DNA of 64,000 bases from Pseudomonadota bacterium (GTDB taxonomy: Bacteria; Pseudomonadota; Alphaproteobacteria; Rhodobacterales; Rhodobacteraceae). The stretch is from contig JBCCHI010000004.1 of NCBI GenBank assembly GCA_039028815.1, positions 221-64,220 of the forward strand, given 5' to 3'. Position numbers and translations under genes: made by a program. Positions 1-19,312 of this stretch are shown piece after piece; positions within the stretch are counted from its first letter, which is position 1; every line of letters begins with the position of its first letter. The notes below the pieces were generated by a model, which made no database searches, was not told the origin of the DNA, and worked only from the letters and a program-made list of their open reading frames with translations.

Positions 1-281
1 ACTTTCATCTCGGTGGAACACTGGGGCTCGGGTATCTCAGACTTGACCGGTTTGAAGAGGCGGTCAGTGTTTTGGAACATGCGACATCGCTCGAAGAGGA
101 AAAGACTGCCGGACCAATTGCCCGCTCCGAGGTTTGGGCGGTTCTTGCAAGCGCCTATCGTCAGGCAGGTCGGATGAACGACGCCGAGCGGGCGCTTACG
201 ATTGCAGAAGGCATTGAAAGCGACAAATATTGGGCGAAATTCATCTCCGAAGAACGCGCTTTGCTCAATGAAGCCCAGTAG
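1..281 (+). CDS. TPR-repeat protein, C-terminal fragment (5' end outside window)
   Basis: Frame is open from the window edge to the stop at 279-281. TPR-like helix pairs LGLGYLRLDRFEEAVSVLEHA and WAVLASAYRQAGRMNDAERALTIA. Confidence 0.45.
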   Translation, partial: FHLGGTLGLGYLRLDRFEEAVSVLEHATSLEEEKTAGPIARSEVWAVLASAYRQAGRMNDAERALTIAEGIESDKYWAKFISEERALLNEAQ

Positions 282-386: not shown

Positions 387-2687
387 TCAGAGCTCCAGAG
401 GCTCTTTGCCCAGGTTGCGCCACTTATCAATGGCTCGCCGCGTCCATTGCGCGTCCGAGTCAAGCGCATCAAACACCATGTAATCTGCAAGATGCATGAT
501 CGCATCCTGCGCGCGCAGTATGGAGCCATCATAGAGTTCCGGCGTTTGCGAAAAGTCCGCATCGGATTGCCCGATCAGACGCAAGTCAAGTTTACGCGAC
601 CGGCACCCTCGCGCCTGAAGCGCCGCAAGCTTTTGCGTCTGTTCCCTGAAGTCGTCCAGACCAAACGCCGCCTGATCCACTGCCTTTAACGCCTGAATGT
701 CCATGTAAGCCGGGCTTGCCGCATTAAGCTCAAGGATCGAACAGGGCCGACCAGTGACGCCCATCCAGGCCTCTGCGATAGCCAAAGCTGCCAGCCGGTC
801 ATAACCGGGTGCGTTGGGTGTCACTATTTCCAGGGCCTTCTGCGGCAAAAGACTGTCCTTTTCTGCAATCTTGTCCAGCAGAGCTTTGGCGGCATCCTGC
901 GAGGGCGCCGATTTCACACCGAGCGGTCCGATGACACCCAACCGCACCACCTTTCGCCAGCAGGACGCTGCCTCAGCAGCTTCCTGACGTTCCAGTCCGA
1001 GGGTCAGCGCGGATTTGACATTGCGCTCGTCCTTGACGGGCTGGTCCACTGGAAGCTCGGCATAGGGCACCATCAACGGGTGCAGCTTCTTTTCATTGTC
1101 TCGTGGTGCCCCTTTGGGGGGCGCCTGATACCCTTCAAGTCGCCGTTCCGCCACCCAGCGGGTGTGTTCTGTACGCGCCAGATCTTCGATCAGCTGCTCG
1201 TCACCCAGCACCTGATTCCCCACGCTTCGTTCAAGCCGCAATCCGGCAAGAGATGTCCCTCCGGTCGGCACAAAACCCGCGGCATAGAAAATCTCCACCG
1301 ATGACATCGCCGCGCGATAACTCGGTCGCCGCATCGCTGTCGGCATGTTTTTCCACAGATTGCCTTCGGTCTTGTCGTCCGCAGGCAGGTTGTCACGCCA
1401 GATACTGTGAATTTCTTCCGCAAGTCCGTTGTAAATCCGCTCAAGCTCGACATCCTCGGCGTCCAGCCTTCGTCCTCCAAACGGAACAATACCACCGGTC
1501 AGATCGTTGAAGGGCTGCGGAGCGATCGAGGCCAGACTGTCACTGCGCATGAAAATTGGCGCTTTGAGACAAAGATGCTGAAGCTGTAGACGGCGCAACC
1601 GCATCGCAATTGCCACATTTCGCGTGTCCTCTCCCGCCGCGACCACGATGGCCGTGAGAGGCAACTCCGCCTCAAGTTTCATCAAATCGGCAGCGCGGTT
1701 CTCTGCGCAGCATTCCAGGCCATCAAGTTCCAGGAACTCGATCTGCAGCCCGTCGGGTCTGAAGTCCGGGTTAAAGAGATCAGGGCGTTCCGCCCTTATG
1801 CGTGCGCAGGCAGCATCTGGCGCCTGGTCGATCACTGTAAGTCGAAGAGCCCGAAGGTTAGGGTGGTGACAGCGCAGCGCCAGTTGTTCGGCCACGGCAA
1901 GATTCACGCTGCCAAGCCCCATCAGTGCAACATGGACGCGCTCTTGGTCTCGGAGGGTCGCAAGTGCAGTCGGAGCCATGCCCGTCACCAGCGCCCGCGC
2001 GATTGTCTCACTGCGTGAAATGAGCGTGGCATGCTCGAAATCATCACCCAGCAGGTGCAAGTCGCGCGCAACCGAATTATCCTCGATCCTCAGAACAAGG
2101 TTTGTTTCCTGGCGTCGTTCAGGCGGCACGCCGGATAACCAGATGCGCGCGCGTTCAACATTGGTGACGGTGTCCGCCGCACCGAAAATCACAGCGTCCG
2201 GCCTTTGGCCCAGACTGGCGCCCGTGGCTGTTCGATCGTTCATGCGATCAACAAGTCTGAGAGTTGGGCGCGACCTTGGCGCCAGCGACGAAAGTGCATC
2301 CTTTGTGTCAAAGACTGTCACGCTTCCCTGCCGAGACGTGTAGTCCAGTGCGAACTCGGAAACCCCGACCATGACCTGATGATGCCTTTTCCGTCTGGCT
2401 CTCAGGCGCTTGACCTGCTCACCAAGAAAAATCGCCGCCACGCCGATCAGGGCAGATATCGTTGTGACCAAGCCCGTAAAACGGGCAGTGGCTGTCAGGG
2501 CATTGGGCGTATGTATGTAGGTTTCATCACCCGTGAACGCCAACAGAGCGAGATAAAGCGCGTCAAAAATCCGCCACTTTCCGGTTTCGCTGAAAAAATG
2601 CTCAGTCCATCCCCACGTTGCGGTCACAAGGGTCGTGGCAGCAAAGATCAAAAGCACCCAAAGTGCGAGCTGACGACTGCTGTTCAA
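387..2687 (-). CDS. Membrane protein: 2-TM channel-like pore module + two Rossmann/RCK-like domains + RyR domain + C-terminal SLOG/YpsA-like domain
   Basis: 766-aa ORF. TTG start lies 5 nt after a GGAGGA SD and overlaps the patatin stop (TTGA). TM1 - FDALYLALLAFTGDETY - TM2 resembles a K+ channel pore. Rossmann-like segments VMVGVSEFAL and VALMGLGSVNLAVAEQL. RyR signature LARTEHTRWVAERRLEGY...KKLHPLMVPYAELP. C-terminal VTPNAPGYDRLAALAIAEA. Confidence 0.8.
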   Translation of the reverse strand: MNSSRQLALWVLLIFAATTLVTATWGWTEHFFSETGKWRIFDALYLALLAFTGDETYIHTPNALTATARFTGLVTTISALIGVAAIFLGEQVKRLRARRKRHHQVMVGVSEFALDYTSRQGSVTVFDTKDALSSLAPRSRPTLRLVDRMNDRTATGASLGQRPDAVIFGAADTVTNVERARIWLSGVPPERRQETNLVLRIEDNSVARDLHLLGDDFEHATLISRSETIARALVTGMAPTALATLRDQERVHVALMGLGSVNLAVAEQLALRCHHPNLRALRLTVIDQAPDAACARIRAERPDLFNPDFRPDGLQIEFLELDGLECCAENRAADLMKLEAELPLTAIVVAAGEDTRNVAIAMRLRRLQLQHLCLKAPIFMRSDSLASIAPQPFNDLTGGIVPFGGRRLDAEDVELERIYNGLAEEIHSIWRDNLPADDKTEGNLWKNMPTAMRRPSYRAAMSSVEIFYAAGFVPTGGTSLAGLRLERSVGNQVLGDEQLIEDLARTEHTRWVAERRLEGYQAPPKGAPRDNEKKLHPLMVPYAELPVDQPVKDERNVKSALTLGLERQEAAEAASCWRKVVRLGVIGPLGVKSAPSQDAAKALLDKIAEKDSLLPQKALEIVTPNAPGYDRLAALAIAEAWMGVTGRPCSILELNAASPAYMDIQALKAVDQAAFGLDDFREQTQKLAALQARGCRSRKLDLRLIGQSDADFSQTPELYDGSILRAQDAIMHLADYMVFDALDSDAQWTRRAIDKWRNLGKEPLEL

Positions 2688-3952
2688 CTGGATCCTCCGC
2701 CTTTGTCTGCACCAAAGATCAGCGTGCCGATATCGGGACCCTGAGCAATAAAGGCCTTCGTGATGTCATACAGTGGAAGGATGACCTCTGGATCATCCAT
2801 GCGTTGAAGACGGCGTATGTCCTTGATTTCCGGTGAAATGCCCAAATTGGAGAGCGCCTCTTGTTCAAGCGGCAGGTCCAGTCGCAGATAGCGGAACAAC
2901 GGCTCTGGCGCCAGCGTATCCTGGGCAAGGTCACCAATCTCGGAATTGACCCTTTGGGGCAAAACAGAATGTCCAAGCCACTGCATCATGGTCAGCGCTT
3001 GCTCTTCCGCATCTCCGGCCATCCCGAGCATCGACAAAAATGCAAGGCGCACCGGTCCCATTCTTGCCGCAGTGCGTGGATCAATGCGTTGACGAAACCG
3101 CCCGGTTCCGATCGAAAGCACGTGGAGATTGTCAATTCCAACGGGCCATTCCAGACCGAAAGCCCGAAGCCTGGCGAGCTTCAGCAGCGCCAGACTGGGG
3201 TCATTGTAGGGCGACAGCCCTCCATCTACAAAAGTCGCCAATTGATCGGTCCCGACATGCACCGGGGTTTGTTCAAAATAGACCGGGGCTGCCGTGGCCG
3301 CCTTGAGAAGCCGCGCCATCTCGTAGTGCCGATTGCCAACGTAGCCGCCATGCGGCGGATCTTCAAAGTAGGGCGACGTCGGAATATTGCTGACAATCCA
3401 CGCGCTTCCTGTGTCTAGTCGTTTGGTGACAAGCGCCACAAAGCTCTGAAATTCCGGATCACCCAGTTTGACGTCACCAATGATCTGTCGGATTTCCGCT
3501 TCGAGTTGCGCGCCGTCATAGACAGGTGCCTGCCCCCAGGCCCACCACCTGCGGCGCCCAAAGAACCTGGTGGCGCGCGTCAGGTAAAAATCCTTGATCG
3601 TGGAAAGTGGCAAACCAAGTGACAGCGCCGTTGCAATCAGTGCCCCGGTCGACGTGCCGCCAATCAGATGAAAGACATCCGCAATACTTGCATCCGGTCC
3701 GTAGCGCTTTTTCACCGCGAGATCGACTTCTTCCAGAAATGCGACCTCTACAATGCCCCGCACGCCGCCTCCCGACAGGGAGAGGATGCGTCGAGGGCCG
3801 GAATCTTGTAGGTTCGGGCACATGGGGGTTTCCAGTTGGACCGGCGTCTGCTTAGCGGTTCGTACCATGCTTGAATCAGCACCGGGTGACAATCTTTCGA
3901 ATAGAAAGCGTTTGGAAAACCTGATCTTGCGACCTGCTGTCCGACCCGGCAT
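2684..3952 (-). CDS. Patatin-like phospholipase
   Basis: Oxyanion motif SGGGVRG, nucleophile elbow GGTSTG (GxSxG), catalytic Asp motif FVDGGL. Start uncertain (ATGs at 3952, 3868, 3823; none has a clear SD). Confidence 0.85.
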   Translation of the reverse strand: MPGRTAGRKIRFSKRFLFERLSPGADSSMVRTAKQTPVQLETPMCPNLQDSGPRRILSLSGGGVRGIVEVAFLEEVDLAVKKRYGPDASIADVFHLIGGTSTGALIATALSLGLPLSTIKDFYLTRATRFFGRRRWWAWGQAPVYDGAQLEAEIRQIIGDVKLGDPEFQSFVALVTKRLDTGSAWIVSNIPTSPYFEDPPHGGYVGNRHYEMARLLKAATAAPVYFEQTPVHVGTDQLATFVDGGLSPYNDPSLALLKLARLRAFGLEWPVGIDNLHVLSIGTGRFRQRIDPRTAARMGPVRLAFLSMLGMAGDAEEQALTMMQWLGHSVLPQRVNSEIGDLAQDTLAPEPLFRYLRLDLPLEQEALSNLGISPEIKDIRRLQRMDDPEVILPLYDITKAFIAQGPDIGTLIFGADKGGGSS

Positions 3953-4035
3953 CGACAGGATGGAACAGCTCTGGAGGGCTCAGATCTCCCGGTCAGTCGT
4001 CGATTGTGACCCTGATCCGGTTAAAGGTGGGTATC

Positions 4036-6267
4036 ATGAAGGTTTGGACACTCGGCATCTTTATCGGACTTCTGGCGTCCCGACTTCTCGCGGACGAGGC
4101 AGCCACATGGGCTTTTGATCCGGGACAAGACACGTTTTCACAGACCGCCATCCTGGATCTGTCGGGCCTGAACGAAGACACTGCAGGCGAAGCCGGATTT
4201 GTCAGACGCTCCCGCGACGGCGCCAACTTTGTTCGCGGAGATGGTTCACCTGTGCGCTTTTGGGCTGTCAACACATCCGTCGCGCAGATGGGGATGCCTG
4301 CCTTGCGCCACCACGCCCGTTTTCTCGCGAAACGCGGGGTGAACATGGTTCGGTTTCACGGCCAGATCCCGCAAGGCGGCAAGACGGGCGGACCGCTGCA
4401 TGCGATCGACGCGACAGAACGCATGCGGCTCTGGATGCTTGTCGCCGCCATGAAGGACGAAGGGATCTACGTGACGTTCAGTCCCTACTATCCACATGCC
4501 GTCCGCGAAGAGGCCGCCCGGCGGTGGAGCTCGCCCAGGGACAGTGCGGGACTGGCCGGTCTGATATACTTTGATCCTGACGTTCAGGATGCCTACAAGA
4601 ACTGGCTGCGGCAAACTCTGACACCGGTGAATCCGCACACCGGTCTGGCGTTGAAGGATGATCCGGCTCTGGCGATCATTCAGATGCAAAACGAAGACTC
4701 TCTTCTGTTCTGGACACTGAACGAAATCGAGGGGCGCGAAGCAGACCTGCTCGGCGCCAGGTTCGGATCCTTCCTGAAAGCAAAATACGGCTCTTTGGAG
4801 CAGGCGAAGATGCACTGGAACAATGCCGGAGCGCCAGGCCCGCTCGACGGCATGGATGACGACTGGGCGCGTGGCGTGATTGCCCTGTCCAATATCTGGC
4901 ATCTCACAGACGCCGCAGGCAAAAGTTCTGCCGAAATCCGGCTGCGCGATCAGGCCGAGTTTCTGACCCTGACCATGCGCGACTGGCATGCCGAGATGGC
5001 CCGCTTTCTGCGCGAAGACATCGGGGCGCCGCAGCTTTTCAATCCGGGAAACTGGCGCACGGCGGACGACATATTTCTCGATGATCTCGAACGCTACGCC
5101 CACACCACCGGCGACGTGGTTGGCGTGAACCGCTATGTCGGAAACCGGCACGACGGCGAACGCCCCGGCTGGGCAATCGTCAATGGCGACCGGTTTCGCG
5201 AAAACGGCCTGCTGAACCGGCCGCTCGATCTGCCGGTCGCGGTAAGGCAACCTGTCGGGCACCCCTACATTGTCCCTGAAACACTCTGGGTTCCGCCGGT
5301 GTGGCAGCAATCCGAGGGGCCTGTTCTGATGGCGGCCTACCAATCGCTTACAGGTGTCGACATCAGCTATTGGTTCGAAACCAACACAGTCCAGTGGCGT
5401 CAACCACAAAGCGCGAACGGCTACCTGCCAAGCATCGGAAAGTGGGTTGTGGCGACACCGCAGATCATCGGGGCTTTTCCGGCTGCGGCATTGATGTTCC
5501 GCAACAGAGCGATCGATACGCCTGATCCCGTTCTCACAGAGCGGCGCGCGCTGGATGACCTCTGGTCCAGGACACGCCCTCTGGCCGCCCCCGGGCAAGG
5601 CAGGGATCCAAACCGTGATACCCCGCTGACGGCGCTCTGGTCAGGTGCCCGGGACATGCCGGAAACTTCGACGATCAGCCCCTATGTCTTTCTCACCGGG
5701 CCGGTTTTGGTCGAATTTGACAGCAGCGCGGCAGATGTCGTTCACCCGAAGCTTGACAGACTGATCAACCCGGAGCAGCGCAGCGTCACCAGCGCGAACG
5801 GGCAATTGCACTGGAACTGGGGCGCCGGCGTTGTGACGCTGGACGCACCGCGTGCACAGGGAGTGATCGGGGCATTGGCCGCGCAACACGAGTTCAGGCT
5901 GCAGGATGTCACGATTGCAAGCCCCGAAGACTATGCCAGTGTGATCGTCGTGCCACTGGACAAGGCACCCATTGCCAGATCCGAACGGTTGCTGATTCAG
6001 ATCGGCAGCATCGCACGGCCAACCGGATGGCGCGCGGATCCTGTCCAACTCGAAGATGGGCCAGCGCTGGAGGTGGTCGACTTTGGCACAGCGCCCTGGC
6101 AGATCAACAGGGTCAGCGCGAACATAACCCTGAACAACAGCGCCGTGTCCCGCGCCACGGTGCTTGACCCAAACGGCATGCCGGACCGTGAACTGACAGT
6201 CCTGCACGGTGACGGCCAGTTGTCTTTTGAGCTGCCGGACGACGCGCTTTATGTCGTTGTTGACTAA
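4036..6267 (+). CDS. Secreted glycoside-hydrolase-like protein (TIM-barrel clan GH-A type)
   Basis: ATG at 4036 preceded by AAGGTGG. Signal peptide MKVWTLGIFIGLLASRLLA. Motifs VNMVRFHG and IIQMQNEDSLLFW (NE acid/base-like). Family assignment is tentative. Confidence 0.6.
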   Translation: MKVWTLGIFIGLLASRLLADEAATWAFDPGQDTFSQTAILDLSGLNEDTAGEAGFVRRSRDGANFVRGDGSPVRFWAVNTSVAQMGMPALRHHARFLAKRGVNMVRFHGQIPQGGKTGGPLHAIDATERMRLWMLVAAMKDEGIYVTFSPYYPHAVREEAARRWSSPRDSAGLAGLIYFDPDVQDAYKNWLRQTLTPVNPHTGLALKDDPALAIIQMQNEDSLLFWTLNEIEGREADLLGARFGSFLKAKYGSLEQAKMHWNNAGAPGPLDGMDDDWARGVIALSNIWHLTDAAGKSSAEIRLRDQAEFLTLTMRDWHAEMARFLREDIGAPQLFNPGNWRTADDIFLDDLERYAHTTGDVVGVNRYVGNRHDGERPGWAIVNGDRFRENGLLNRPLDLPVAVRQPVGHPYIVPETLWVPPVWQQSEGPVLMAAYQSLTGVDISYWFETNTVQWRQPQSANGYLPSIGKWVVATPQIIGAFPAAALMFRNRAIDTPDPVLTERRALDDLWSRTRPLAAPGQGRDPNRDTPLTALWSGARDMPETSTISPYVFLTGPVLVEFDSSAADVVHPKLDRLINPEQRSVTSANGQLHWNWGAGVVTLDAPRAQGVIGALAAQHEFRLQDVTIASPEDYASVIVVPLDKAPIARSERLLIQIGSIARPTGWRADPVQLEDGPALEVVDFGTAPWQINRVSANITLNNSAVSRATVLDPNGMPDRELTVLHGDGQLSFELPDDALYVVVD

Positions 6268-7059: not shown

Positions 7060-7890
7060 TCACTGCAGCTTGTGAAAGAACCGGTCGCCGCGCCAGGTCC
7101 AGAAGAACAGCATCGAGCGCCCGGCCGAGGAAAAAATGACCCGATCGGCGCGGCCGATCAGATTTTCGAACGGGACAAACCCCACACCCTGCGCGGTCAC
7201 CCGCGCGCGGCTGTCCTGTGAATTGTCCCTGTTGTCGCCCATGAAAAAGTAATGCCCCTCCGGCACAACAAAGACCCCGGTGTTGTCGGACCCCTGAGGG
7301 CCGATATTGAGGATGTCGTGAGAGCGTCCGTTCGGCAGCGTTTCGATAAAGCGTTCCTTGATGCAGATGGCGCCGATCCCGGCCACTCCGTTCGAGCAAC
7401 GTGGCGTCTTGCGCAACGGCCCTTGCGGTGCGAACACCTCTTCAAAGTAACCGGCCTCCTGCAGCTTCACCGGTTCACCGTTGAGATTCAAAACCCCGTC
7501 AATCATCTGCACCCGGTCGCCCGGCATCCCAATCACGCGCTTGATATAGTCCGTCCCGTTCACCGGATGGCGGAAAACGATGATATCACCCTGCTCCGGC
7601 TCGGTGCCCCAGACACGCGTGTTGTCACCGTCCAGAAAACCGCAGATCTTTTGCGCGTCAATGTTGAGTCCGGGAAGGCGAATGTTCGGGCAGGATGCGA
7701 AGGAATAACCATATGCCATCTTGTTCACGAACAGGAAGTCGCCAATCAGAAGCGTGTCCTTCATGGACCCCGACGGAATCCAGAACGGTTGAAACAGCAC
7801 CGTGCGGAAGATCCCCGCAATAACCAATGCCCAGAAAACCGTCTTCAGTGTTTCCCAGATCGTGCTCGATTTCTTCACGTCGTCGGCCAT
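7060..7890 (-). CDS. lepB: Signal peptidase I
   Basis: PSGSMKDTL (Ser), [11 protein letters not shown] (Lys), [11 protein letters not shown] box. ATG 7890 (MADDVKK) preferred over the TTG at 7944. Confidence 0.9.
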
Positions 7891-7940
7891 GCCGTCCCTC
7901 CGGAGGTTTGGGCGCTTCATGCGCAGGGCACGGGCGGGTG

Positions 7941-8405
7941 TCAAGCCAAGCGGCGTCGGGGTCCACCTGGCGGTGTGTCCGGCACAGCGCCGCCGGCCGG
8001 ACGCGCTTCGATCACGACAAATGCCTGGGCCCAGGGATGATCGTCGGTGAGGCTGACATGAATGACCGCCTCATGGTCATCGGGTGTCATGGCGGCAAGA
8101 CGCTCTGCTGCCCATCCCGTCACGACCATCACAGGTTGACCGGTGTCCAGATTGCGCACCGACATGTCCTTCCATGCGATCCCCATACGCAGACCCGTTC
8201 CAAGCGCTTTGGAACAAGCCTCCTTGGCGGCCCATCGTTTGGCATAAGTGCCCGCAACGTCCGCGCGTCTCTCTGCCTTTGCCTGCTCGGTTTCGGTGAA
8301 GACGCGGTTGCGAAAGCGGTCGCCGAAACGCTCCAGCGTGCCCGCAATCCGTTCGATATTGGCAAGATCCGTTCCGATACCAAGGATCATTGTACCGCCC
8401 TTCAT
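7941..8405 (-). CDS. acpS: Holo-ACP synthase
   Basis: [16 protein letters not shown]-terminus typical of AcpS. ATG 8405 overlaps the upstream stop (ATGA); alternative ATG at 8390. Confidence 0.9.
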
Positions 8406-9838
8406 ACGTTTGAGAACAGGGGAAAACTTACGCCCAATGCCCAGGCAAGCGCCAGCCCCAGTCCCAGGCCGGCCGACATCGGGCCAAACCGCCGACCAGC
8501 AACGCGTCCCATGCCGCCGATACTGAGATAGAACAACACGATCACCGGAGCGATCAGCAAAACAAAGAACAGACCTTTGAAATCAAGCGCCACGGCAATG
8601 GCAAGCGAGATCAGGAACCCGAGCCGCGCCACGACCCGCCGCAAGATCGGAGCGCGATAGACCAGCCAGCTGTCCGACAACATAAAGGGCACGGTGCCAA
8701 GTGCCAGCGCTGCAATGATCGTGATCCTTTGGGATGTCGGCCAGAAATTTGCGCCATACCGGTCCAGCACGAATCCGAAAACACCGATCGTCCAGATGAG
8801 CAGAACGCACGTGCCCGGCAAGTTGATCCGCGCGGGCCAACCCCGAAGCCGCCACTGAACCAGACCCTGCACTACACCGTATATCAGCAGGTGCAGCGCA
8901 AGATAATCCGCCACGAGCACAGGCAAAACACGCACGTCCAGTAACCATGCAATCAAAGGTGTGGCCACCATCGGCACACCAACGGCAACGGCAAAGCCAC
9001 GCACGGACAAGGGCTGCGGCGGATCGTGCTGCGGCGGCAGGAGCCGGGCAACCGGCGCGAAAAGTACCGTAATCGCCGCCAGCAAACCCAGAATGGCCCA
9101 GCCCGTTTGCGGAACGGGCGGCGTCGACGTGCGGTCATAGTAGTCGTTCAGCCAGCTCAGCGCTGCGGCACGTCCTGCCCTGGAATGCAGGATTGCGACA
9201 TGCTCGACCGCCGGTGCTACAATAGCCGCGCGCCGCACACCGGGCGCTGCACCGGCTTCCGCGCGGGTGGCGAAACCCTGCAGGCGCGGCTCCCACGCAC
9301 CGGTGATCATCAGCATGTCATCGGGAGAGTCCGGCGTCACTGCGCCGGAAAATGTGGCCAGAAGCACAAGTGGCCCGATGGGACCGGCCTGTTGCGCCGC
9401 GCGCACCAGCACATCGGTGGCCATGGAATGCCCCAGAAGTGCAACCTCTTCTCCAGGCGACCGTACGGCATTGATCACCTCAAGCGTCTGATCGACCAGC
9501 AAACGTGTGGTTCCGTCCGGCGATGTGACGTCGCCCGACATCGGGACCGGATGGCGGCCATGCCCTTCGAAGTCGAACGCGTAGACACGATACCCCGCCT
9601 GCGCAAGGACATGCCCGTAGCCCTGCATCATCTGGCGAGACCCGGCAAAGCCGTGGGCCATCACGACAGAAGGGCCATCCTCTCGGCCCTGGATCGAGAC
9701 AACAGGCGTTGCGCCAACATGGAACGTCGCGTGGTCCAGACCTGACCGCGCGCGTTCCAGTACCCAGACCGCCCAAACCGCTGTCGCAAGCGCCAGAAGA
9801 TACGCCCCAAGGTGCCACACCTGTGTACCGTGTGACAC
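8402..9838 (-). CDS. Alpha/beta hydrolase fused to a polytopic membrane domain
   Basis: N-terminal TM, HGFAGS and GHSMATD (GxSxG) hydrolase motifs, then about 230 aa of hydrophobic helices. Confidence 0.7.
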
Positions 9839-18811: not shown

Positions 18812-19312
18812 CTACGCGGTCGAGACCTTGCGCGCCTTGCGCAGCAGCATGTCGCGTTTCATCCTGCTAAGCCGGTCAAAGAACATCCGACCGTCCAGAT
18901 GGTCGATCTGGTGCTGCACGCTGGTCGCCCAGAGACCCTCGAACGTCTTCTCCTGCCACACACCCGTCTCGTCGAGAAACCGCACCGTCACGGTATCTGG
19001 CCTCAGAACACGCGCCTGCACACCGGGGAGATTTGGGCTCCCCTCGTCATGGGCGCGCAAGGTCGCGTCCGCGGCGATGATTTCTGGATTGGCCATGCGC
19101 AGGGCCTGGCCGCGCGCCCGGCTGGCATCGACCACCGCAAGGCGTTCCATCACACCGATCTGAACCGCGGCGAGTCCGACGCCCGGCATCGCCTCCATCG
19201 TGTCGATCATGTCCTGCCAGATCGCGTGATGTTCAGGGCGGATGGCCGCAACGCTGTCCGCGCGTGTGCGCAGTCTCCTGTCCGGCCAGAGCAGACAGCG
19301 CCGGGCGGTCAC
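18812..19312 (-). CDS. Peptide deformylase-like protein lacking catalytic Cys and Glu
   Basis: Motif 1 [10 protein letters not shown] is intact. Motif 2 is EGSPN instead of EGCLS. Motif 3 is QHQIDH instead of QHEIDH. Confidence 0.85.

Follow-up and report, generated by a model that had tools for sequence, protein, structure and literature searches.

What does a patatin lipase do in translational step with a protein that resembles an ion channel and carries a ryanodine receptor (RyR) domain? The question is raised by two adjoining genes near one end of a 64,000-nucleotide stretch of alphaproteobacterial DNA (the window, to which all coordinates refer), positions 221 to 64,220 of contig JBCCHI010000004.1 in the Rhodobacteraceae metagenome-assembled genome (MAG) GCA_039028815.1. 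An earlier note, made from the sequence alone, had taken the pair for an undescribed two-gene conflict module and had seen no signal generator close to it. The reading that we favour, slightly more doubtful than secure, is that the pair forms the effector arm of a TIR/nSTAND1 NLR-like defence: a cation channel gated by a cyclic ADP-ribose (cADPR)-type nucleotide, together with a CapV-like lipase. It builds on the gene structure and coupling, the domain folds, the conserved catalytic and pocket residues and the recurrent linkage to TIR and nSTAND1 genes set out below.

Two translationally coupled genes

Both genes lie on the minus strand, where the earlier note had placed their open reading frames (ORFs):

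387-2687, minus strand: 766-aa channel-like gene with a TTG start, encoding the predicted pore, RCK1, RCK2, tandem RyR and C-terminal Rossmannoid domains
2684-3823, minus strand: patatin-like phospholipase gene, probably 379 aa from M44 (ORF open to 3952)
2684-2698, minus strand: coupling junction, with GGAGGA at 2693-2698, a 5-nt spacer, TTG at 2685-2687 and TGA at 2684-2686

The plus-strand letters tcaa at 2684-2687, read directly, give TTGA in the direction of the two genes, so that the patatin stop codon TGA and the TTG of the 766-aa ORF overlap; a GGAGGA Shine-Dalgarno sequence lies 5 nt 5' of that TTG. The start is supported by 34 homologs that begin at the same alignment column, and since homologs are 34-66% identical over their full length, these are real conserved genes and not chance ORFs. 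Translational coupling, which had been deduced from the overlap and the Shine-Dalgarno sequence, is borne out both by this reading and by tight junctions in relatives, where the large gene overlaps as TTGA (locus L017), ATGA (L001) or ATGCTAG (L028) or is separated by gaps of 8-46 nt. A promoter scan found no sigma-70-like site 5' of the patatin gene.

A RyR domain in a channel-like scaffold

An AlphaFold (AF2) monomer model of the 766-aa protein, built with a 35-sequence alignment, reached a pLDDT (predicted local distance difference test) of 91 and a pTM (predicted template modelling score) of 0.85; a single-sequence model (pLDDT 39) was discarded. Foldseek matched the model in the PDB best to GsuK (4gx1, E 1.8e-6), and also to the TrkA ring, BK/Slo1, the CASTOR/DMI1 rings, full-length MthK and human RyR3 Repeat12. 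The pore-like module with two transmembrane (TM) helices and the two Rossmann/RCK domains that the earlier note had read from the letters are recovered by this model and its matches, and the protein is laid out as follows:

2391-2687, minus strand, residues 1-99: TM1, pore helix, filter-like loop and TM2 (model helices 2-35, 40-49 and 63-99)
2517-2546, minus strand: conserved motif LLAFTGDxSY, from the alignment
1953-2390, minus strand, residues ~100-245: RCK1 Rossmann domain, with a degenerate glycine motif GxSxFA and Foldseek matches to GsuK, MthK and TrkA
1473-1952, minus strand, residues ~246-405: RCK2 Rossmann domain, with Foldseek matches to the two-RCK gating rings of TrkA, BK and CASTOR
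975-1472, minus strand, residues ~406-571: tandem RyR repeats, Repeat12-like and all-helical
1029-1169, minus strand: ligand-pocket residues H508, W511, R529, H536, K552 and D553, from the alignment
390-974, minus strand, residues 572-766 (~195 aa): C-terminal five-stranded Rossmannoid domain, its strands taken from the AF2 model, where it spans residues 577-766

RyR is the sole Pfam match of the protein (PF02026, 32.8 bits against a gathering cutoff of 27.4), and phmmer against the PDB finds RyR1/RyR3 Repeat12 and the bacterial 3NRT. Foldseek aligns the region to human RyR3 Repeat12 with a probability of 1.0 over ~190 columns, a span that identifies a tandem RyR domain, and also returns phage RyR proteins as structural neighbours; profile and fold thus agree with the RyR domain that the earlier note had recognised. 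The same note called bacterial RyR domains poorly understood. Two 2026 preprints have since shown RyR domains to bind TIR-derived cADPR isomers, phage PF02026 proteins either binding 2'/3'cADPR and cADPR with nanomolar affinity or cleaving them (PMC13232231; 10.64898/2026.06.04.730250), and this suggests a specific role for the domain in the window. RyR Tad contacts 3'cADPR, which it binds with a dissociation constant of 43 nM, through H129/W132, K147/H154 and K170/D171 (10.64898/2026.06.04.730250), and the ligand residues of RyDEP are H75, W78, H100 and D117 (PMC13232231). The pocket of the window protein, H508/W511, R529/H536 and K552/D553, matches both sets, spacing included, and each of these six positions is either invariant or conserved in at least 90% of the 35 sequences. 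Judged by sequence, it has the pocket residues for glycocyclic ADP-ribose (gcADPR) that were defined in RyDEP and RyR Tad: HxxW, a basic residue plus His, and Lys-Asp.

The likeness to RyDEP and RyR Tad takes in PF02026, the Repeat12 fold and all six ligand-contacting residues (HxxW, K/R...H, KD). Those, however, come from phages and are small, soluble and dimeric, and they remove a host signal by sequestering or cleaving it, whereas the RyR domain in the window is host-encoded, in tandem in one chain, and embedded in a membrane-channel scaffold beside TIR genes; we would therefore place it on the receiving side of the pathway.

In the pore region, G26, W27, Y45, L49 and A79 are invariant in the alignment and F51, G53 and D54 at least 90% conserved. 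The stretch DALYxTLLAFTGDxSY falls in register with the NaK pore IDALYFSVVTLTTVGDGNF (3e83, filter TVGDG), non-significantly at E 8.7. Fold and topology are what point to a NaK- or K-channel-like pore, and its selectivity is uncertain. Further along the chain, Pfam TrkA_N matches the RCK1 position in distant members of the superfamily, which combine TrkA_N with RyR, and has no match in the window protein itself; RCK2 bears GLGSVN and, where beta2 ends, a conserved Asp (D287), a dinucleotide-binding-type signature in the alignment. The order TM1-pore helix-loop-TM2 followed by two RCK domains per chain is that of the 2-TM RCK channels (GsuK, MthK, Kch and BK/Slo1, with the TrkA ring and the NaK pore as further likenesses). 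Unlike them, the window protein adds RyR Repeat12 and a C-terminal Rossmannoid domain, reads AFTGD and not TVGYGD, and is encoded by an accessory gene in a conflict-type context, not a housekeeping one.

For the C-terminal domain, the AF2 model upholds the Rossmannoid assignment of the earlier note and leaves its SLOG-like label weak. Conserved motifs are GVIGPL, TPNAPGFDR and RPLGxSDAD. Pfam YAcAr PF10686 matches 2 of 24 members, at best with E 0.005, which is below threshold; Foldseek against BFVD matches YspA/cpYpsA-SLOG and DUF2493 with probabilities of 0.97-1.0 but E values of 0.03-0.3, for a model whose aligned region was not reported. Neither the hhalign comparison with D29 gp61 alone nor that with the D29 gp61 family was significant, the latter placing NAPGFDR opposite GGAxGAD, and a PDB profile search returned spurious pentapeptide-repeat matches only. 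The domain is possibly, on weak grounds, a YAcAr-type SLOG.

Linkage to TIR and nSTAND1 genes

Neighbours were counted at 31 distinct loci of the large gene; several of those without TIR or nSTAND1 are short contigs. A TIR or TIR-like gene lies near the large gene in 15 of the 31 and an nSTAND1 STAND NTPase gene in 10, and 18 have at least one of TIR, TIR-like and nSTAND1. The arrangement is operon-like, with the TIR or TIR-like gene directly up- or downstream on the same strand, in at least seven loci (L003, L005, L009, L011, L017, L018 and L043). Five TIR architectures occur:

TIR_2 plus a separate nSTAND1-TPR: L006, L016, L019, L028
TIR-nSTAND1-WD40 fusion: L005, L007
TIR-WD40: L017, L018
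TIR-TPR, as a fusion or as two adjacent genes: L011, L027
TIR-like proteins of ~393 aa: L003, L005, L009

Such variety argues against simple hitch-hiking of one neighbouring system. Complete arrangements include TIR_2, nSTAND1-TPR and the channel-like gene in Hoeflea sp. AS16 (L006), the same set with patatin in L028-type loci, a compact TIR-WD40 and channel-like pair in L018, and patatin, the channel-like gene and a TIR-repeat protein in L011 and L017. The upstream ~393-aa proteins had also been considered as nucleoside 2-deoxyribosyltransferases; the Pfam match is below threshold, a PADLOC TIR effector model fits better, and they are counted as TIR-like. Patatin adjacency, which the earlier note had proposed to score across homologs, turned out to be confined to 9 of the 31 loci, where the patatin gene lies directly 5' of the large gene.

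The window itself opens on a fragment of such a partner:

3-281, plus strand: C-terminal TPR-like tail of a convergent nSTAND1-type STAND NTPase, the gene body lying beyond the contig start

By tblastn, the nSTAND1-TPR protein of L006 matches the tail at its C-terminus, with 34% identity over 91 aa (E 8e-9). A contig of a sister MAG (L051) lengthens the tail ORF to 681 aa, with the NTPase domain itself off-contig, and the 681-aa ORF aligns to residues 983-1638 of the 1638-aa nSTAND1 of L016/L006 (27%, E 7e-60 and 3e-55). The gene converges on the large gene, an arrangement also seen in L016 and L019, each of which has a TIR_2 gene ahead of nSTAND1. The apparent lack of a signal generator was thus an artefact of the window and contig edge, because the contig begins inside an nSTAND1 gene of a kind that is TIR-preceded or TIR-fused in L006, L016, L019, L028, L005 and L007. 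One half of that earlier statement stands: no CD-NTase occurs among the window neighbours of the pair (the nSTAND1 tail, a 753-aa protein and rnc/lepB/acpS) or in the Pfam listings of homolog loci. The other half, that no other signal generator is nearby, does not survive the TIR linkage in relatives. For the window locus, the presence of a TIR gene is extrapolated from those relatives, since both MAG contigs end inside the nSTAND1 gene.

Patatin has nSTAND1 partners of its own. On S. meliloti pEm1132b, a patatin 39% identical to that of the window precedes an nSTAND1-ankyrin protein, and its clade also adjoins nSTAND1 genes where the large gene is lacking (L032, L033). On the plasmid of Rhodococcus sp. 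JS3073 (L033), a TIR-nSTAND1 gene lies 5' of a 34%-identical patatin (1487-5764 and 7374-9095 for the locus), with no channel-like gene; as this locus is actinobacterial, the patatin-nSTAND1 link is wider than Alphaproteobacteria.

A Sinorhizobium plasmid island (L031/L032: CP050559.1, NZ_CP148088.1; S. medicae NZ_CP149879.1) carries the gene of a distant TrkA_N-RyR protein of 780 aa in translational coupling with an NB-ARC/DUF7779/TPR STAND gene, along with genes or fragments of genes for type IV secretion system (T4SS) coupling proteins. A patatin 38-39% identical to that of the window lies 5-7 kb from the TrkA_N-RyR gene, followed by a 1650-aa nSTAND1-ankyrin gene. In NZ_CP148088.1 the channel-like gene is apparently split or mis-annotated.

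A CapV-like patatin

The 422-aa ORF matches PF01734 over residues 57-252 (85.2 bits against a gathering cutoff of 27.7, 8.8e-24) and carries the patatin motifs:

3755-3772, minus strand: GGGVRG
3644-3658, minus strand: GTSTG, with the Ser nucleophile
3218-3226, minus strand: DGG

GGGVRG, GTSTG (Ser101, or Ser58 from M44) and DGG (Asp243) are invariant across 8 patatin homologs. The earlier note was right about the lipase and probably wrong about its length: since homologs are 362-385 aa long, their alignments start near residue 51 and the sister MAG is annotated with 379 aa, the true start is probably M44 (ATG at 3821-3823), giving 379 aa and not 422. The NCBI annotations differ accordingly, with 422 aa in the window MAG (MEM7073636.1) and 379 aa in the sister MAG (MEM9497024.1). 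A 359-aa call in Logan is surely wrong, as its GTG start would fall inside the GGGVRG motif.

The closest profiles are those of lipase effectors of CBASS (cyclic-oligonucleotide-based antiphage signalling systems), led by PADLOC PDLC00758 at 6.7e-40, and the protein is about 25% identical to plasmid-borne proteins annotated as CapV. With CapV (NF041079; PDLC00755-758) it shares the patatin fold, the GGGxRG/GxSxG/DGG motifs, its best-matching profiles and a predicted membrane-degrading killing role. It differs in scoring 110.2 bits against NCBIfam CBASS_lipase NF041079, below the equivalog cutoff of 200, in the lack of a neighbouring CD-NTase, in a distinct, conserved C-terminal region of ~100 aa, and in its partners, channel-like and/or nSTAND1.

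Distribution and accessory character

Full-length relatives of the large protein form 41 clusters among 5.8 billion proteins, and a second homolog search using the alignment gained 1 cluster only. The family occupies 14 loci among 185,579 species representatives, all in Alphaproteobacteria (mostly Rhodobacterales, plus Hoeflea, Niveispirillum and Hyphomicrobiales), and 10 metagenome loci; no relatives were found in viral contigs. Plasmid tblastn with the Sinorhizobium relative found 3 Sinorhizobium plasmids only, and with a short-form superfamily member, P0100, nothing. The wider 2TM-TrkA_N-RyR superfamily counts 6,584 representatives at E<=1e-3, many of them ~570 aa long and without the C-terminal domain. 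The spread of the family is extremely sparse and patchy.

Composition and context agree with an accessory element. The GC content of the pair is 0.57-0.58 against 0.61, its GC content at third codon positions (GC3) 0.60-0.63 against 0.65-0.76 in the core neighbours rnc, lepB and spoT, and insertion sequence (IS) transposases and T4SS genes lie near family loci. The conflict-system role that the note proposed thus gains from context (rarity, patchiness, transposases, T4SS and slightly low GC and GC3), but its picture of a constant, self-contained two-gene module does not hold with patatin at 9 of 31 loci.

In an uncultured Roseobacter (L001, 293-2860 and 3490-4986), a second, divergent paralog of 855 aa, with TrkA_N and a weak RyR and 23% identical, and a T4SS coupling protein are encoded just 5' of the patatin and channel pair, which suggests that the L001 pair is on a conjugative element. 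Decayed copies also occur: the patatin gene is frameshifted in Ruegeria halocynthiae (L004 6875-8004), and in Citreicella sp. C3M06 (L013 7830-9752) the channel-like gene, beside a gene for a 1364-aa RTX protein, is split over several reading frames. Such copies fit a costly accessory system.

How the pair could act

We propose the following sequence, in which ion conduction, the identity of the ligand, the direction of signalling, the route of patatin activation and the defence phenotype are what we infer. A STAND NTPase whose repeats are of the TPR, WD40 or ankyrin type would sense an invader and activate a TIR domain, encoded just upstream or fused to it, which would turn NAD+ into an ADP-ribose-derived nucleotide, for example a cADPR isomer. 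The 766-aa protein would assemble as an RCK-regulated, 2-TM tetrameric cation channel, probably poorly selective because its FTGD filter is NaK-like. The nucleotide would be bound in the cytoplasmic ring by the RyR Repeat12 pocket, perhaps also by the RCK2 or SLOG-like domains, and ligand binding would open the pore and collapse ion gradients. That event, or else physical contact with the channel, could also activate the CapV-like patatin, supplied in a fixed ratio through translational coupling; the lipase would then break down phospholipids, ending in abortive infection.

Several points weigh against this scheme. Defence, conduction and ligand binding by family members are predictions, drawn from sequence, models and analogy. 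The pore goes undetected by sequence profiles, Ion_trans_2 giving no match to the 766-aa protein at E<=1, and AFTGD at the filter position is unlike the T[VI]GYGD of known selective channels. The conserved H/D pair of the RyR pocket (H508, D553) is the catalytic dyad in the RyDEP glycosidase, so that the RyR domain might be a hydrolase of the signal and not its sensor. The SLOG assignment is statistically weak: for the C-terminal domain and the D29 gp61 family, a YAcAr/DprA-like phage alignment of 7 members, hhalign gives a probability of 0.3%. No TIR gene was found in the 64-kb window, in a search that included the other ~60 kb, both MAG contigs ending inside the nSTAND1 gene; and seven loci with full flanks (L001, L002, L004, L010, L013, L020 and L029) have neither TIR nor nSTAND1, which implies that the large protein can exist without them nearby. 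Finally, the TIR domain of many STAND-TIR proteins is an NAD+-depleting effector and not a signal maker.

The strongest alternative, which we consider unlikely, keeps the autonomous two-gene module of the earlier note: patatin and the large protein would serve in abortive infection or stress. The RCK/Rossmann domains of the large protein would respond to a general metabolic cue such as NAD(H), ATP/ADP, K+ or Ca2+ with no need for TIR, and the protein would then work as a channel, license the lipase, or both. In that case TIR and nSTAND1 genes would belong to separate systems that share defence islands. RCK rings classically sense NAD(H), ADP and Ca2+, and GsuK, TrkA and MthK are among the structural matches; translational coupling is kept in several loci; in L001 and among the nearest visible genes of the window, patatin and the large gene stand without an adjacent TIR; and TIR plus nSTAND1 pairs look like complete NLR-type systems on their own. 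Yet patatin is missing from 22 of the 31 loci, the neighbours are specifically TIR genes of five architectures, often in the same operon, and not a mixture of defence systems, and the RyR pocket retains every gcADPR-contacting residue.

That pocket can also be read in another way, which we find quite improbable: the large protein could be a signal terminator or buffer whose RyR domain cleaves or sequesters cADPR isomers, setting a threshold for the TIR pathway or resetting it, with killing left to patatin or to NAD+ depletion by TIR. The conserved equivalents of the RyDEP dyad, H508 and D553, and the phage RyR proteins among the Foldseek neighbours speak for such a role. However, RyDEP homologs that have these residues mostly bind the signal without cleaving it (PMC13232231), a 2-TM pore with two RCK domains is an elaborate scaffold for a soluble enzymatic task, and the large gene often occurs with TIR but without patatin, which would leave the system without an effector unless TIR depletes NAD+. 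Barely credible is a housekeeping or stress-physiology pair without a conflict role, in which an RCK-regulated channel for K+ or cations would serve osmotic or pH homeostasis and the lipase would remodel membranes: the fold is that of the ordinary RCK channels GsuK, MthK and TrkA and the pair adjoins the core cluster rnc, lepB, acpS, pdxJ and spoT, but the sparse, patchy spread, the pseudogenised copies (patatin in L004, the large gene in L013), the IS, T4SS, TIR and STAND neighbours, the deviant composition and a patatin closest to CBASS killing effectors all tell against it.

Relation to known systems

The reading of the pair as a TIR/nSTAND1 effector arm brings it closest in logic to Thoeris. 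As set out in the text and part of the tables of a 2025 preprint on Thoeris diversity, type X combines TIR with an ion-channel effector (ThsK) and is validated, with its signal unidentified, and a SLOG-patatin is listed as an unvalidated candidate effector; the same portions make no mention of RyR, TrkA, RCK or the present effector architecture (10.64898/2025.12.03.692087). Type X with ThsK and type I, whose ThsA has a SLOG sensor, resemble the loci described here in placing a TIR gene beside a non-enzymatic, membrane-acting effector with a putative nucleotide sensor, and in a predicted course from infection through an NAD-derived signal and an effector to abortive infection. The differences are that the TIR partners here are large STAND/repeat proteins and not the small ThsB, whose profiles match weakly (E 1e-4 to 1e-10), and that a second effector, patatin, is co-encoded. 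A tblastn search of plasmids with a published type X TIR found type II (TIR+macro) operons only.

The nSTAND1 NLR-like systems of Kaur et al. 2021 (PMC8195603) share the nSTAND1 NTPase with TPR, WD40 or ankyrin repeats, the TIR domain and the variable loci; here, in contrast, effectors are separate genes and not N-terminal fusions. That paper mentions no patatin, RyR, TrkA or ion-channel partners (PMC8195603), and some further Aravind-laboratory papers likewise say nothing about RyR, TrkA or patatin in such a setting. A literature search found no description of host-encoded RyR-domain channels beside TIR or STAND genes. That the pair fits no described system, as the earlier note had judged, is borne out: no paper describing it was found, PADLOC holds no model for the large protein, and no PADLOC v2.0.0 family matches that protein at E<=1.

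Among animal proteins, RyR is a cADPR-modulated channel whose Repeat12 holds a nucleotide/dantrolene site, and TRPM2 is gated by ADP-ribose and has an N-terminal SLOG-like MHR1/2. The window protein recalls them in joining a putative cation channel to RyR Repeat12, and possibly to a SLOG-type domain, with a predicted ligand derived from ADP-ribose. Their pores are unrelated (6-TM against 2-TM RCK) and their sizes very different, and only Repeat12 is demonstrably homologous.

What the reading would imply

A broader proposition follows the same line and is, in our estimate, rather unlikely: that RyR Repeat12 domains of hosts are the physiological receptors of cADPR-type nucleotides made by bacterial TIR proteins, here directly gating a cation channel with a lipase as co-effector. 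TIR signals to effectors, patatin killers, RCK channels and nucleotide binding by RyR domains are known piecewise; their combination, and Repeat12 on the receptor side of the host, appear to be undescribed. The broader proposition would explain the phage RyR-domain decoys. It would also make the system a prokaryotic counterpart, and for the Repeat12 module a homolog, of the cADPR-ryanodine receptor axis of animals, and a STAND-TIR sensor would reach a channel in trans by way of a small molecule, a route comparable to that from plant TIR-NLRs to helper-NLR channels. The favoured reading of the pair, if correct, would already give a first predicted role to the widespread, uncharacterised bacterial TM-TrkA_N-RyR proteins (~6,500 representatives at E<=1e-3) and would supply a host receptor that phage RyR proteins mimic or compete with. 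A ligand-gated RCK channel co-translated with a lipase would be a new effector type of TIR/NLR-like immunity, and the long-debated link between cADPR and RyR would become testable in a simple system, by asking whether Repeat12 gates a channel on a cADPR isomer. STAND-TIR proteins may thus do more than deplete NAD+, by signalling to separate effectors.

Further features of the loci

FGE-sulfatase (SUMF1/EgtB-type) domains recur near the loci of the large gene (L021 2342-5065, L030 3464-5218 and L032 ~18825-19065), and one is fused as DUF4062-nSTAND1-FGE-sulfatase, a sensor-type architecture of other conflict systems. Large neighbouring ORFs of 605, 469, 642, 940 and 1136 aa have no Pfam match (L011 1910-3727; L012 28-1437; L021 10451-15702; L029 1572-4982); the 605-aa protein, encoded 5' of the patatin gene in L011, has a faint match to a TIR hidden Markov model at E 0.005.

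Two further features of the window flank the pair:

331-351, strand not given: terminator-like hairpin GCTTCGAAAATTTTTTGAAGC, a pattern match from a consensus scan
4006-6267, plus strand: gene for a 753-aa protein with a signal-peptide-like N-terminus and no Pfam match

The 21-nt hairpin lies in the 105-nt gap (282-386) between the convergent nSTAND1 tail and the channel gene, where GC is 0.35 against 0.61 for the window. The 753-aa gene lies between the patatin gene and rnc; the sister MAG and the Logan contig have it too, whereas every homolog locus lacks it. It splits the usual lepB-rnc-(era) core cluster and may mark an island boundary.

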